Assembly (NCBI GenBank): GCA_044225175.1 | Contig: JBGAJA010000001.1 | Location: forward strand, 422,711-486,710 | Length of the DNA stretch: 64,000 nucleotides | Direction of reading: 5' to 3' | Source of the DNA: Candidatus Omnitrophota bacterium | GTDB taxonomy: Bacteria; Omnitrophota; Gorgyraeia; Zapsychrales; Fredricksoniimonadaceae | Shown here: positions 50,401 to 54,005 of the stretch, one piece after another | Position numbering within the stretch: position 1 is the first letter of the stretch | Layout of the letters: the number at the start of each line of letters is the position of its first letter | Notes under the pieces: generated by a model | Told to the model about the DNA's origin: nothing | What the model saw: only the letters and a program-made list of their open reading frames with translations | Databases searched by the model: none | Program-made: the position numbers and the translations under genes

Positions 50401-53400
50401 CCAGCAATTGGCTTATAGGTCTGCCTAAACATGTTTATGTTCAAGATTTTAATGGCAATACGCTTAGCCAGGCATGGCTTTATTATGATGGCAGCAGCAA
50501 TCTTGATGCGCCTCCTGTACGTGGGCGTGTGACGAATAAGGTTAATTGGTTAGGAAGTTCAAGCCAGGCGGATCCTGTGACGAGGTATATCTATGATGTA
50601 TATGGCAACGTGACGAATACGGTTGATCCAAATGGAAATATGACAACAACTGTCTATGACAATGTTGTTCACATGTTTCCAATCCAGATGACCAATGCCT
50701 TGGGACAAACAGCCTCAAAGACCTATTATGGAGTTGGTGATGAGGCCCAAGACAAAGGCCTTTATGGTCAGGAAAAAACCACCACAGATAGTAATAATCA
50801 AACAATATTAACGATCTATGACAGCTTTGGCCGGCCTATATCATCAGTATCTCCACTAGACAGCGTTGCTTTGCCAACGACACAAAAGATCTATCAAATT
50901 TTTCCAACTTATACAACTATCACCAGCAAAGCTCGAGTTGACAGCGGTTCAAATCAGACGATTGATTCAGTGGAATATTACGACGGCTTAGGGCGATTAA
51001 TCGAAGCTAAGTCTGCTTCAGGGAATGCGGGTCAATATATTGTCTCTGGGTTAACTGAATATGATTCCAGAGGCTTACCAATTAAGAAATACCTTCCAAG
51101 ATTCACTTCCCATGATTTAAACACCCTAGATGCCATCGATAGCTCTGTTCCATCTTCACAAGTCACCTATGATGCTATGGGAAGAACAATTGCTGTGACT
51201 AATCCTGATGGAACCCATTCGAATGTCCAATATAACCATTGGATGACAACTACAATAGATGAAAACGGACACATGCAGAAGTCTTATATGGATGCTTATG
51301 GACGATTGATTCAAAAGGAAGAGTATACAGGGGCAGATGGAAGGGCTGCTGACTATCCTGTGACTCCCTACACGTTGTATGCTACGACGAATTATACCTA
51401 TGATCCTTTGGGTCGATTAATCTCGGTTAAGGATGCTCAGAATAATATTACAACCATTCAATACGATTATTTAGGCCGTAAGATTAGTATGAATGATTTA
51501 GACATGGGCAATTGGCAGTATAGTTATGATGCTAATGGAAATATGCTTGAACAAACAGATGCTAAAGGAAAGAAGATTCGTTTTACGTATGATGCTTTAA
51601 ATCGCCTGATTAATAAAGCAGAGGCTATTGCAAATCCAACATTTAATGTGAACTATGCTTATGACCAGGTCGGTCAAAGCAACTCAATTGGACGCTTAGG
51701 GAAGGTTGATTATAACAATGGGGCAGCCGGCTTTATTTATGATGAGTGGGGAAGAGAAGTATCTTCGTCTAAGAATATTGATGGAAGGCTTTATCGAGTC
51801 AATCGAGAATATGACCTATTAAATCGTATTAAAGTATTAACTTATCCAAATGGACAGCAGATCAAGTATTTATATAACCAAGCAGGACAGGTCATATTTA
51901 TTGGTTCCGTACAACCGCAAGATGAAATGGCAGCATTAAAGCCTGCTACAGATGATCCCAATCAAATATTGTTAGCCTTAAATGATGTCATAGGCATTCG
52001 TAACGCCTATGGGGATACCACAATGCAATTGCCAGGGCCATATGTGAATAATGTCAGCTACAACGCTTTAGGCCAGATTACTCAGATTCAATATGCTAAT
52101 AAAGTTACAACAGCATACACCTACAATCCTTTGAACTCACGATTGACCCGTATTTACACATCAAATGCTCAAGGTGATAAGCTTCAAGATTTAAATTACA
52201 CTTACGATGCGCTAGGTCAAATCACATCGATCACCGATGCAGTTCATACCGCGACCCAGCAATACAAATATGATGCTTTAAATCGTCTTATCTATGCCCA
52301 GGGTAGTTACGGGGTTAAGAATTATGTCTATGACTCTATAGGAAACATCATCCAAAAAGATGGGCTTACCTATTCCTATGGAGAACCAAACAGCCGAACA
52401 GATGGAGGTAAAGCAGGTCCTCATGCAGTGACATCATTAAGCGATGGAACAACCTTTAAATATGACCTTAATGGCAATATGGTGACAATCAAAAAGGGGG
52501 TAGATACAACCACGTATCTTTATGATGTGCAAAATCGGTTAATCGAGATCGACACTCAAAAAACAGGTCCCTCAGTAGTTGCAGCTAAGTATTATTACGA
52601 CGGAGATGGTGGAAGAACGAAGAAGGTGGTGACTCATAGGGATACAGCAATATATAACATCACTGGATCTCTTTATCGCAACCTAGACGGAACACCATTC
52701 CCAGCCACTAATCAAAAGCCAGACACAGTGACAACTCGCTATATAGGAAATTTAGTTGAAGATGAAGATCATGGAACAACGGGCGTTCATCGAAGAACTA
52801 ACTTTATCTATATGGGTGGAACAAGAGTAGCCGCTCAAGCCAATGATAATGTGTTGTACTACCACAATGATTATCTAGGCGGCGCCAATGTATTAAGTGA
52901 TCAAGCAGGGTTAAAAAGAGACCTGACTGAATATGATCCGTTTGGATTGGTTGTGCGTCATGAGCGTTATGGCAAAGACTTTGCAACCATATGGTCAGGA
53001 TTTACGAGTAAGAACTTAGACGATGAATCAGGACTCATGTTTTATGGAGCTAGATACTATAATCCAAAGCTAGGACGATTCATTACGGCAGATACTATTG
53101 TACAGTCGCCAGGTAATCCGCAAACGCTTAACAGATATACGTATTGTAATAATAACCCAGTCAACAACATTGATCCTACTGGACATAGTTGGTTTAAAAA
53201 GTGGTTTGGCAAAATTGTTGGGGTTATTGCTGGAATAGTAGCAGGAATTGCTACAGGTAATTTTATGGTAGGTTTTCAAGTCTACAATATGGTAAGTTCC
53301 GGAATAACAGCTATTCAGACAGGAAATATAGCAGGATTCGTAGGGAGTGTGATAGGCGGAGCTATAGGAGCAAGTGCGGGGATTAGTATAGCAGGAAGTA

Positions 53401-54005
53401 TAGCAAGGAATTTTGCTCCTTCATTAGGGACATTTTTTGCTATAGGTGCGGCAGAGATGGGAACGGCAGGCTTTGGGTCTGCTTTTGTAGGTAGCCTTGC
53501 CTCAGGAGCAAGTTTAGGGCAAGCATTTAAAACAGGGCTGCAATCAGGAGCTGTTGGAGCTGTAATAGGGGGAATTATTGAAACTACTTATTTATCCGGA
53601 ATACAAAATCAAGTTCACGGTATGAGTAAAGAGCAGTATGCACAAAATTTAGCTTTTCAAAAAGCAAATCCTGGAGTTGAAATGTGGCCTGATTGGGCAG
53701 ACCGTACATATAGAGATGTTACTGTTAACAATAAAGGTGATTGTTTTATTTCTTCTCCAGAGATCCGAGCAAAGATTTCTGAACTTAATTCTTTGATTGT
53801 TGGAGAGTCTGCAGATCTTCTTTTCAATGGTCCAACAAATAATACTGATGCTGTTTTTAAGCAGTGGGGAGGAATATTTCAGGATTTTGTAATAAAACAT
53901 ACGACCGGGGATGAATTTTATAAATTGTATCAAAGTTCTAAGTTTCCTTCATTAGGGGAGTTGATTCTTGAAAGATCTCGTTTTAAGAAGAATTATTGTT
54001 TTTAA
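47439..54005 (+). CDS. Giant secreted SpvB/TcB-like + beta-propeller + RHS protein, paralog 2, distinct C-terminal domain
   Basis: Same architecture; RBS AAGAGGG 6 nt before ATG 47439 (ORF track start 47433 is TTG); blades diverged and non-repetitive; core ends DPTGHSWFKK; 2188-2190 aa. Confidence 0.85.
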   Translation: MRNLFIVNLALVSTFLAIPHSNATDNQPTQPKSELVHPRTQIKGETVPVSSDPKQIQEVLEKNKQNIDSKDASKEKKDEAPAVKKLEAVSQDKNNQKDGGNSPSGGPGGSVPGNIQASTVNVEPFSGSANMAYPIQVPPGRAGIQPNLALTYSSSFRGLGLAGVGWNLDLGSIQLSTKKGPPKYDGTEIVTLIENGSSQDLVYDSNVEFYRTESEGSFSKIVKDSTGWVISDKKGTKYYFGYTDDSRQYDSANSSHIFRWALNKVEDLSGNYMTITYAKDQGQLYPLTIYYTGNSQMSLNPYARIDINYENASTPSFSYMSGYKINTILRIKSISVSANDRMQSQYNLVYTQSPGTGRDLLQSITQLGADGISALPAITFSYQNTKGFGLASGWNIPNSVVFSNSDSKDLGIRIADINSDGYSDILRLYSVGGVEPGGSAQEYREIYINSKNNSWNLNQGWLPPNSNCYTGYICTNFISKYDSVNNIDVGARLVDVNGDGRLDFIQYFEPAIYLNDTWINWPPSKNNKSYLNQGNSFSDDLVSWHKPSNTEDVFLTINDIWHGDLFNHTDTYEGQGFYLGNIFSDINGDGYVDIVTSKTVQYNPSPTIVTQKNIYFNNIPLGGTGWALSSSFFPPNSSYTDMTDGATLVDLNGDGLPDFFYRKGSTSKTYMNTGSGWQEYSGCPWDNTFGYGDLTDGSTTFADINSDGLMDMIIAKGSLTAGSRVLINTGNGWKQDDAWVFPEGEFKNLGTQLLDANSDGMMDFMIHYNGNTPKLYLNQGNAADLLISVDNGIGAKSTITYDSATHFNNTFLPFAIPVVKSLTIGILNPIGASYNYTTNYSYSGGKWDAGYHEFQGFQTVKVTDSQGNYSQTTYLQDHWLKGRPLEQGTYDAQGLIQNKVVNQWQTQDITTNTTTHQTSKFAYLSRVDNYLYDGAATAKRTTQIFFYNENPQYGDVTQAFNFGEVDFATGNDIGSDKVVTFTEYLSNTSNWLIGLPKHVYVQDFNGNTLSQAWLYYDGSSNLDAPPVRGRVTNKVNWLGSSSQADPVTRYIYDVYGNVTNTVDPNGNMTTTVYDNVVHMFPIQMTNALGQTASKTYYGVGDEAQDKGLYGQEKTTTDSNNQTILTIYDSFGRPISSVSPLDSVALPTTQKIYQIFPTYTTITSKARVDSGSNQTIDSVEYYDGLGRLIEAKSASGNAGQYIVSGLTEYDSRGLPIKKYLPRFTSHDLNTLDAIDSSVPSSQVTYDAMGRTIAVTNPDGTHSNVQYNHWMTTTIDENGHMQKSYMDAYGRLIQKEEYTGADGRAADYPVTPYTLYATTNYTYDPLGRLISVKDAQNNITTIQYDYLGRKISMNDLDMGNWQYSYDANGNMLEQTDAKGKKIRFTYDALNRLINKAEAIANPTFNVNYAYDQVGQSNSIGRLGKVDYNNGAAGFIYDEWGREVSSSKNIDGRLYRVNREYDLLNRIKVLTYPNGQQIKYLYNQAGQVIFIGSVQPQDEMAALKPATDDPNQILLALNDVIGIRNAYGDTTMQLPGPYVNNVSYNALGQITQIQYANKVTTAYTYNPLNSRLTRIYTSNAQGDKLQDLNYTYDALGQITSITDAVHTATQQYKYDALNRLIYAQGSYGVKNYVYDSIGNIIQKDGLTYSYGEPNSRTDGGKAGPHAVTSLSDGTTFKYDLNGNMVTIKKGVDTTTYLYDVQNRLIEIDTQKTGPSVVAAKYYYDGDGGRTKKVVTHRDTAIYNITGSLYRNLDGTPFPATNQKPDTVTTRYIGNLVEDEDHGTTGVHRRTNFIYMGGTRVAAQANDNVLYYHNDYLGGANVLSDQAGLKRDLTEYDPFGLVVRHERYGKDFATIWSGFTSKNLDDESGLMFYGARYYNPKLGRFITADTIVQSPGNPQTLNRYTYCNNNPVNNIDPTGHSWFKKWFGKIVGVIAGIVAGIATGNFMVGFQVYNMVSSGITAIQTGNIAGFVGSVIGGAIGASAGISIAGSIARNFAPSLGTFFAIGAAEMGTAGFGSAFVGSLASGASLGQAFKTGLQSGAVGAVIGGIIETTYLSGIQNQVHGMSKEQYAQNLAFQKANPGVEMWPDWADRTYRDVTVNNKGDCFISSPEIRAKISELNSLIVGESADLLFNGPTNNTDAVFKQWGGIFQDFVIKHTTGDEFYKLYQSSKFPSLGELILERSRFKKNYCF

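Follow-up and report, generated by a model that had tools for sequence, protein, structure and literature searches.

A conserved glycine-zipper module and an orphan tip form the C-terminal tail of an RHS protein in a Candidatus Omnitrophota genome

The window analyzed here is a 64,000-nt stretch of a Candidatus Omnitrophota genome (GenBank assembly GCA_044225175.1, contig JBGAJA010000001.1, positions 422,711 to 486,710), which ends in an array of head-to-tail RHS genes. The C-terminal end of the second of these, paralog 2, is an RHS polymorphic toxin tail of a known kind, and its first half, a glycine-zipper (GZ) module, belongs to a genuine domain family that accompanies RHS cores. The second half is a short orphan tip. 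The original prediction, made from the sequence of the window, had treated both halves together as a payload different from those of the other paralogs. The glycine-rich half is not a unique payload but a conserved and confidently folding domain family, and the variation resides in the tip. The open reading frame (ORF) of paralog 2 and the elements at its C-terminal end are as follows.

47433..54005, + strand: paralog 2 ORF, 2190 codons open, with the stop codon at 54003-54005
52932..53186, + strand: Rhs-associated core (plug) domain, aa 1834-1918, ending in IDPTGH (TIGR03696 positions 1-76 of 76, E 2.7e-21)
53172..53201, + strand: junction motif DPTGHSWFKK, aa 1914-1923, common to paralogs 1-3
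53202..53621, + strand: GZ pre-toxin domain, 140 aa, defined by 54 relatives, an alignment, and an AlphaFold2 model
53604..53621, + strand: QNQVHG, an instance of the conserved Q...HG boundary motif and second cassette junction, found in 54/54 relatives and in paralog 2
53622..54002, + strand: orphan C-terminal tip, 127 aa with two Cys, the presumed effector cassette

The glycine-zipper module and its scaffold

An exhaustive phmmer search with the paralog 2 tail against 1.84 billion representative proteins returned 54 matches at E <= 1e-3, 27 of them at <= 1e-10, with identities of 35-51%. The matches are confined to tail residues 1 to ~148; in 53 of the 54 relatives, the matched stretch ends at tail residues 141-164, and in the remaining one it reaches residue 184. 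The module directly follows the end of the RHS core, DPxG[HYL], in every relative for which upstream sequence is present, and all four full-length proteins that were checked carry an FG-GAP and RHS scaffold, with TcdB_midN in three of them. A genome scan made with a 5-sequence alignment located five GZ loci, four in metagenome-assembled genomes (MAGs) of Candidatus Omnitrophota and one in a Planctomycetales MAG. Conservation is concentrated in the motifs GNFMVGFQVFN, F.GGF.IGA.EFG..GFGAGFG, and GG.IEGSY.AGWQ...HG, and six columns are invariant (E85, F91, G123, G133, Q135, and H139 in tail numbering).

In composition, the first ~140 residues of the paralog 2 tail are 46% Gly, Ala, or Ser, with 5 charged residues. 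There are 30 occurrences of [GAS]xxx[GAS]xxx[GAS] in it; when its residues were shuffled 5000 times, the count was 12.3 +/- 3.3 and always below 30, and the periodicity therefore exceeds what composition provides. The small-residue zipper noted in the original prediction is thus real, but its description as a repeat region is not borne out, as Tandem Repeats Finder (minimum score 100) detected no tandem array in the DNA. With the alignment as input, AlphaFold2 modeled the GZ at a predicted local distance difference test (pLDDT) score of 89 and a predicted template modeling (pTM) score of 0.77, with five long helices (2-18, 21-40, 43-70, 75-100, and 105-132). Helices 1 and 3 have Kyte-Doolittle means of at least 1.6 over 19 residues, the other three have means of 0.7-1.25, and the invariant Glu lies in the middle of predicted helix 4.

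Profile and sequence searches of Pfam, NCBIfam, and the PDB sequences found no relatives of the GZ, and the whole paralog 2 tail had no match in Pfam at E up to 10. The Pfam glycine-zipper families Gly-zipper_Omp, Gly-zipper_YMGG, and Rick_17kDa_Anti did not match it either; among 27 members of the GZ family compared with Pfam, there were only two sub-threshold Gly-zipper_YMGG matches (best E 0.036). A word-index protein search with the whole tail found nothing, which carries little weight because this tool missed the relatives found by exhaustive phmmer.

The protein that bears this module has the layout of a fused TcB-TcC cocoon. Its translation probably begins at the ATG at 47439, which AGAGGG precedes by about 7 nt, and its N-terminus, MRNLFIVNLALVSTFLAIPHSNA, reads by eye as a Sec signal peptide. 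The Pfam domains SpvB, FG-GAP, and TcdB_toxin_midN follow at aa 126-288, 587-715, and 739-884, and after them come the RHS repeats (PF05593, E 3.6e-43; TIGR01643, E 1.8e-20). The plug region aligns to the solved chains of TccC3, YenC2, RhsA, Tse5, and SGS1 as far as DPTG. In a residue-level alignment, the cleaved chain 8h8a_A stops one residue beyond the point aligned to DPTG, and most of the other solved RHS chains tabulated stop at this point or within a few residues of it. The core motif of paralog 2 terminates in H (GH), not L. Given that most of the solved RHS chains end at or near DPTG, self-cleavage after H1918 is predicted, and enclosure of the ~272-aa tail in the shell is to be expected by analogy with established RHS and Tc structures. 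To our knowledge, every RHS and Tc shell solved so far holds the post-plug chain within its cocoon.

Tips, cassette exchange, and downstream genes

After DPTGHSWFKK, the paralog 2 tail spans 267 residues (53202-54002). The start given in the original prediction, 53171, is one base out of frame, as the motif begins at 53172. The tails of the other two complete paralogs are located as follows.

46393..47256, + strand: paralog 1 tail, 288 aa, with a different type of Gly-rich module and a different tip
59801..60631, + strand: paralog 3 tail, 277 aa, with a Gly-rich region and an unrelated tip

In the final ~500 core residues, the proteins of paralogs 1 and 2 are for the most part 85-100% identical, and beyond them ~17% identical, while their DNA is 75-100% identical until ~53210 and then ~40% identical, so that the breakpoint sits just past DPTGHSWFKK. 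Matches by BLASTP between the paralog 2 tail and those of paralogs 1 and 3 are marginal (E 0.02-0.04) and confined to the Gly-rich parts. The zipper-family hidden Markov model (HMM) profile scored 2.7 bits for paralog 1 and -5.2 bits for paralog 3 (shuffle maxima of 2.3 and 0.2, respectively), and hhalign probabilities among the three C-terminal tips are below 4%. As judged from sequence, the three tails are unrelated beyond a weak, composition-driven similarity at the start of their Gly-rich parts. A single family for all three Gly-rich regions was considered and is not supported: the HMM scores are at shuffle level, and hhalign gave a probability of 20-24%, over the first ~50 residues only. 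The original prediction was therefore sound in holding that the paralog 2 tail is unrelated to its counterparts and that a shared delivery scaffold carries different tails. This scaffold is an RHS one, and identity breaks off abruptly at the motif that closes its core.

The tip itself has the composition of an ordinary globular domain and ends in ...NYCF. The exhaustive phmmer search, the word-index search, and a metagenome scan found no relative of it, and neither did searches of Pfam and the PDB sequences or hhalign against 19 sibling tip families, which upholds the earlier description of a unique, Cys-containing C-terminal domain. Single-sequence AlphaFold2 of the whole tail reached a pLDDT of 39.9, which is unusable for a fold search with the tip.

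In the 54 relatives, Q...HG is followed by 120-170 residues where the sequence is complete, and the shorter tips that were inspected represent known tip families in truncated form. The tips fall into at least 20 BLAST families, with groups of 12, 8, 5, 5, 5, 4, and 2 and 13 singletons, one of which is the tip of paralog 2. With 13 of 20 families being singletons, orphan status is the norm. Two relatives, P0023 and P0024, have GZ modules that are 95% identical and tips that are unrelated; pairs with at least 70% identity in the GZ share a tip family in only 2 of 13 cases, and one tip family occurs behind GZ modules as little as 34% identical. The sole relative found for the paralog 1 tail, P0059, has a Gly-rich module of the paralog 1 type (51% over 109 aa), and its tip belongs to family F0 (HMM E 1.4e-21), which is otherwise attached to modules of the paralog 2 type. 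The occurrence of F0 behind both types of module indicates three tiers, namely the RHS core, a glycine-zipper module of more than one type, and a tip cassette. The check for cassette exchange that accompanied the original prediction is thus positive in the relatives: the tips behind the GZ are shown to be exchanged as cassettes, and the truly polymorphic unit in the paralog 2 family is only the last ~127 residues, downstream of Q...HG.

Several sibling tips provided leads to possible activities. The C-terminal 133 residues of P0035 resemble, by eye, an R-S-E ADP-ribosyltransferase (ART; YRG ... FTSWT ... ESEVLIQG), with nothing significant in Pfam. In family F1 (alignment A3; for example, L004 587-1032), a His (HWG) and a Cys (YxCQxW) are both invariant, which suggests a papain, NlpC, or LRAT-like hydrolase as a by-eye lead without PDB or Pfam sequence support. 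An Omnitrophota MAG (L006, 9812-10865) contains a frameshifted orphan fragment in which an RHS core end, a GZ, and a tip are spread across three frames, with no full RHS gene ahead of the fragment. The ART-like motifs in P0035 and L006 and the hydrolase reading of F1 lack significant profile support and are treated as leads only. For the two largest sibling tip families, nothing was found in searches of Pfam, NCBIfam, and the PDB sequences.

The genes downstream of the relatives are informative as well. Small membrane ORFs, mostly with several transmembrane (TM) helices, usually follow and are candidate immunity genes. Tip family F0 (L009 and L005) is followed by a two- to three-helix protein of 73-77 aa (69% identical by BLAST), family F1 (L010, L004, and L011) by four-helix proteins of 119-129 aa, and family F2 (L007) by a soluble ORF of ~180 aa. 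The F0-linked membrane ORFs, L009 10878-11129 and L005 1427-1648, lie immediately after the RHS genes of two different MAGs, in one case overlapping the stop codon of the RHS gene. When L009 is compared with L010, the GZ is 73% identical, the tip 21%, and the downstream ORF 21%, and on this single comparison, the downstream ORFs appear to track the tip, not the GZ. A tblastn search with the downstream ORFs of the relatives had no match anywhere in the array.

Possible functions of the tail

The explanation we favor, at about an even chance of being correct, is that the tail is that of a polymorphic toxin, is encapsulated and freed by self-cleavage, and has in the GZ a module that inserts into the target membrane and carries or anchors the variable tip. 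Paralog 2 would be a Sec-exported, TcB/TcC-like fused RHS 'cocoon' protein, the last ~272 residues of which would be enclosed in the shell, with the Rhs aspartyl-protease plug cutting after DPTGH. The GZ (~140 aa, five-helix, and nearly uncharged) would leave the shell and insert into the membrane of the target cell, and the 127-aa tip after Q...HG would be an effector anchored at, or carried across, this membrane by the GZ; an odd number of helices would put the tip on the far side. A role as carrier or anchor is favored because the GZ is conserved, is never found without cargo, and is followed by ORFs that appear to track the tip. For the paralog 2 tail, cleavage, encapsulation, membrane insertion, translocation, and toxicity are all steps that we infer.

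Several points weigh against this explanation. No immunity gene adjoins paralogs 1-3, and a scan of the array and its vicinity for small multi-TM ORFs yielded none. The paralog 2 tip lacks relatives, a recognizable catalytic motif, and a usable model, and its role as an effector is therefore assumed from its position. No sibling tip family reaches the Pfam curated cut-off (best E 0.0086), and the best toxin-related match is a sub-threshold one to Tox-ART-HYD1 (E 0.02) in the L006 tip. In addition, a Sec substrate that ends in a hydrophobic segment could instead become trapped in the membrane of the producing cell.

A bolder version, which we regard as rather improbable, would make the GZ a self-contained, cargo-agnostic translocation device that is stored unfolded in the RHS shell, forms a five-helix bundle in a foreign membrane, and delivers any tip of ~130-170 aa to the far side without a TcA pore, type VI secretion system (T6SS), or specific receptor. 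Omnitrophota have been described as predatory, and use of such a device by Omnitrophota-like bacteria against non-kin prey would explain the presence of four tandem toxin genes without immunity genes.

The strongest rival, which we consider possible but doubtful, is that the GZ is itself a membrane-depolarizing, pore-forming toxin like Tse5-CT, EsxX-CT, or the ionophores of contact-dependent inhibition (CDI) systems, with the tip serving as an accessory in targeting, gating, or immunity recognition. It could be that the carrier and pore-former readings are both true. For Tse5, encapsulation of a pore former by an Rhs shell is established (PMC9637101), and depolarizing glycine-zipper toxins occur on other scaffolds (PMC11630599). 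The invariant Glu halfway along predicted helix 4 is also consistent with a pore, as are the small multi-pass membrane proteins encoded downstream of the relatives, which are of the kind seen with immunity to pore formers. However, it is the GZ that is conserved and the tip that is hypervariable and swapped, and the module that diversifies in a polymorphic system is, as a rule, the toxin. The GZ has never been found without a further 120-170 residues, and the downstream ORF type shifts with the tip while the GZ remains 73% identical, albeit in one comparison. The module also has 5 charged residues in 140 aa compared with 32 in 149 aa for Tse5-CT, and its sequence profile matched no PDB chain.

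Much less probable is that the hydrophobic module is a stop-transfer anchor in the producer's cytoplasmic membrane, in which case paralog 2 would be a teneurin-like surface protein for adhesion or contact and the tip would stay in the producer. The Sec-type signal peptide (read by eye), the hydrophobicity of GZ helices 1 and 3 (at least 1.6 over 19 residues), and the Sec integration of pelB-fused Tse5-CT (PMC9637101) are all compatible with an anchor. On the other hand, a full Rhs-associated plug directly precedes the module, placing it where the post-plug chain is inside the cocoon in solved shells, and TM helices are buried within the shell of SGS1 (PMC9935623). Three of the five GZ helices are only marginally hydrophobic (means of 0.7-1.25), and diversification of the tip in the manner of a cassette would be unexpected for an intracellular stub.

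The least probable alternative, if only slightly below the anchor, is that paralog 2 ends in a decayed or non-functional cassette, an evolutionary remnant in the tandem array, which would explain both the missing relatives and the missing immunity gene next to paralog 2 and would fit with the unconfident single-sequence fold and the existence of a frameshifted GZ fragment in L006, but the frame is intact for 127 codons past Q...HG within a 2190-codon ORF with a ribosome-binding site and signal peptide, the tip composition is that of an ordinary globular domain, and 13 of 20 tip families are singletons.

The gene array and known systems

The four RHS genes are oriented head to tail on the + strand and fill the window from 40786 to its end.

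40786-47259, + strand: paralog 1, complete
54006..54154: gap before paralog 3, 149 bp, with only ORFs of 20-57 aa and no plausible immunity ORF
54155-60634, + strand: paralog 3, complete
near 60705 and past the window end, + strand: paralog 4, incomplete in the window

The gaps are 173 bp between paralogs 1 and 2 and 149 bp between paralogs 2 and 3, and paralog 4 (MSMKNIFVGK...) begins 70 bp past paralog 3, so the array has at least four members. The complete paralogs 1-3 all have an N-terminal segment resembling a signal peptide, followed in Pfam by SpvB, an FG-GAP propeller, TcdB_toxin_midN, and RHS repeats, and a full Rhs-associated core (TIGR03696) is present in all three. An identical counterpart of paralog 3 occurs in a contig of the Logan metagenome collection. 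Promoter and terminator counts from a scan of the array were not above those of shuffles.

There is a second hypervariable zone in the propeller region, at ~48585-49710 in paralog 2 (aa ~385-760) and at the counterparts in paralogs 1 and 3, where identity between the paralogs is 11-28%, compared with 60-100% in the flanks. This suggests diversification of a putative binding surface in addition to the tail. In paralog 1, a 288-bp tandem repeat (41982-42828, 2.9 copies, 89% match) encodes near-identical FG-GAP/VCBS units of ~96 aa within the propeller region and coincides with a spike in GC skew at 42001-43000. Directly upstream of paralog 1, a 134-aa ORF (40291-40695) has an N-terminus resembling a signal peptide, several Cys, and no match in Pfam. 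The housekeeping genes upstream of the array include an F-type ATP synthase operon, and just upstream of this operon is a 149-aa ORF (33275-33724) with an N-terminal methylation motif like that of type IV pilins.

The five-helix glycine-zipper pre-toxin domain, the Q...HG junction, and the unannotated tips appear to be undescribed in the libraries searched and in the parts of the literature available to us. Placed between the RHS plug and a swappable tip, the GZ is a small, concrete candidate for the means by which cargo crosses the target membrane, a step that concerns RHS- and Tc-type cocoons without a TcA pore or injection machine. The Q...HG motif provides a second recombination junction, behind which there are about 20 tip families without annotation, in Omnitrophota. 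There is also a lesson for annotation, in that a 'low-complexity' Gly-rich stretch after an RHS core should not be masked. The available sections of a 2012 survey of polymorphic toxins (PMC3482391) name PT-VENN, PT637 (DUF637), and DUF637-N as pre-toxin domains and Tox-WTIP as a single pore-forming domain of two helices.

With the Rhs/YD polymorphic toxins (WapA, RhsA, and Tse5), paralog 2 and its relatives share the RHS repeats, a full Rhs-associated core ending in DPxG, an abrupt switch to unrelated C-termini between paralogs, the exchange of tip cassettes in relatives, and an orphan fragment at a relative's locus. Paralog 2 differs from them in having a Sec signal, SpvB, and a propeller in place of a PAAR, VgrG, or LXG delivery domain, in a core that ends in GH rather than GL, and in the conserved 140-aa module ahead of the variable tip. 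It differs as well in that an adjoining immunity gene, one hallmark of polymorphic toxin systems, is absent next to paralogs 1-3; the hallmark named in the original prediction, different payloads on a shared scaffold, is supported.

The TcB-TcC component of Tc toxins (for example, TcdB2-TccC3) shares SpvB, the FG-GAP propeller, TcdB_midN, the RHS shell, the plug, and a hypervariable C-terminus, here in one polypeptide, and the paralog 2 plug aligns to those of TccC3 and YenC2. In contrast to the Tc toxins, there are four tandem, fused BC-like genes here with a signal peptide on each, and the window has no ORF the size of a TcA partner, the largest ORF besides the paralogs encoding 861 aa. The hypervariable region of TccC3 is an ADP-ribosyltransferase, whereas the paralog 2 tail is a membrane-type module plus a small tip and not an enzyme domain filling the hypervariable region as in TcC.

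The closest solved layout to paralog 2 is that of mosquito SGS1 (PDB 8FJP), in which an Rhs shell and an aspartic protease site are followed by predicted TM helices (~230 aa), which lie buried within the shell, and then by a Tox-SGS domain (PMC9935623). The two have in common a Tc-like Rhs/YD shell, a protease site, a multi-helix hydrophobic region, and a small C-terminal domain, a likeness of layout only, and SGS1 is also the best PDB sequence match for the paralog 2 plug (E 2.1e-09). Unlike paralog 2, SGS1 is eukaryotic and has no signal peptide. The GZ profile detects neither SGS1 nor any other PDB chain, and hence no homology of the helical parts is detectable; Tox-SGS, if it is among the Pfam families, was not matched by the paralog 2 tip at E up to 10.

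In Tse5 of Pseudomonas aeruginosa, a ~150-aa hydrophobic helical C-terminal fragment, Tse5-CT, is cut free by the aspartyl protease of the Rhs protein. This fragment enters membranes spontaneously and is neutralized by the immunity protein Tsi5; it is reported to be unique to P. aeruginosa (PMC9637101). No sequence similarity between it and the GZ was detected in the PDB sequence set, where the presence of Tse5-CT as a separate chain is unconfirmed. Tse5-CT, with its 32 charged residues, makes up the entire tail, whereas the GZ, with 5, is always accompanied by a further variable domain. An arrangement of this kind, with a glycine-zipper or hydrophobic helical segment ahead of a toxin domain (in paralog 2, the presumed effector tip), is shared with Tde1 and the two-domain CdiA-CT ionophores (PMC11630599). 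The N-terminal glycine zipper of Tde1 is required for translocation into prey (PMC10240207), and the segments in Tde1 and CdiA-CT are needed for membrane permeabilization and entry into the target cell (PMC10240207 and PMC11630599). The zipper of Tde1 is short and delivered by a T6SS, and the entry domains of CDI systems are the variable, receptor-specific part, whereas the GZ is long, conserved, and, as predicted here, enclosed in an RHS shell.

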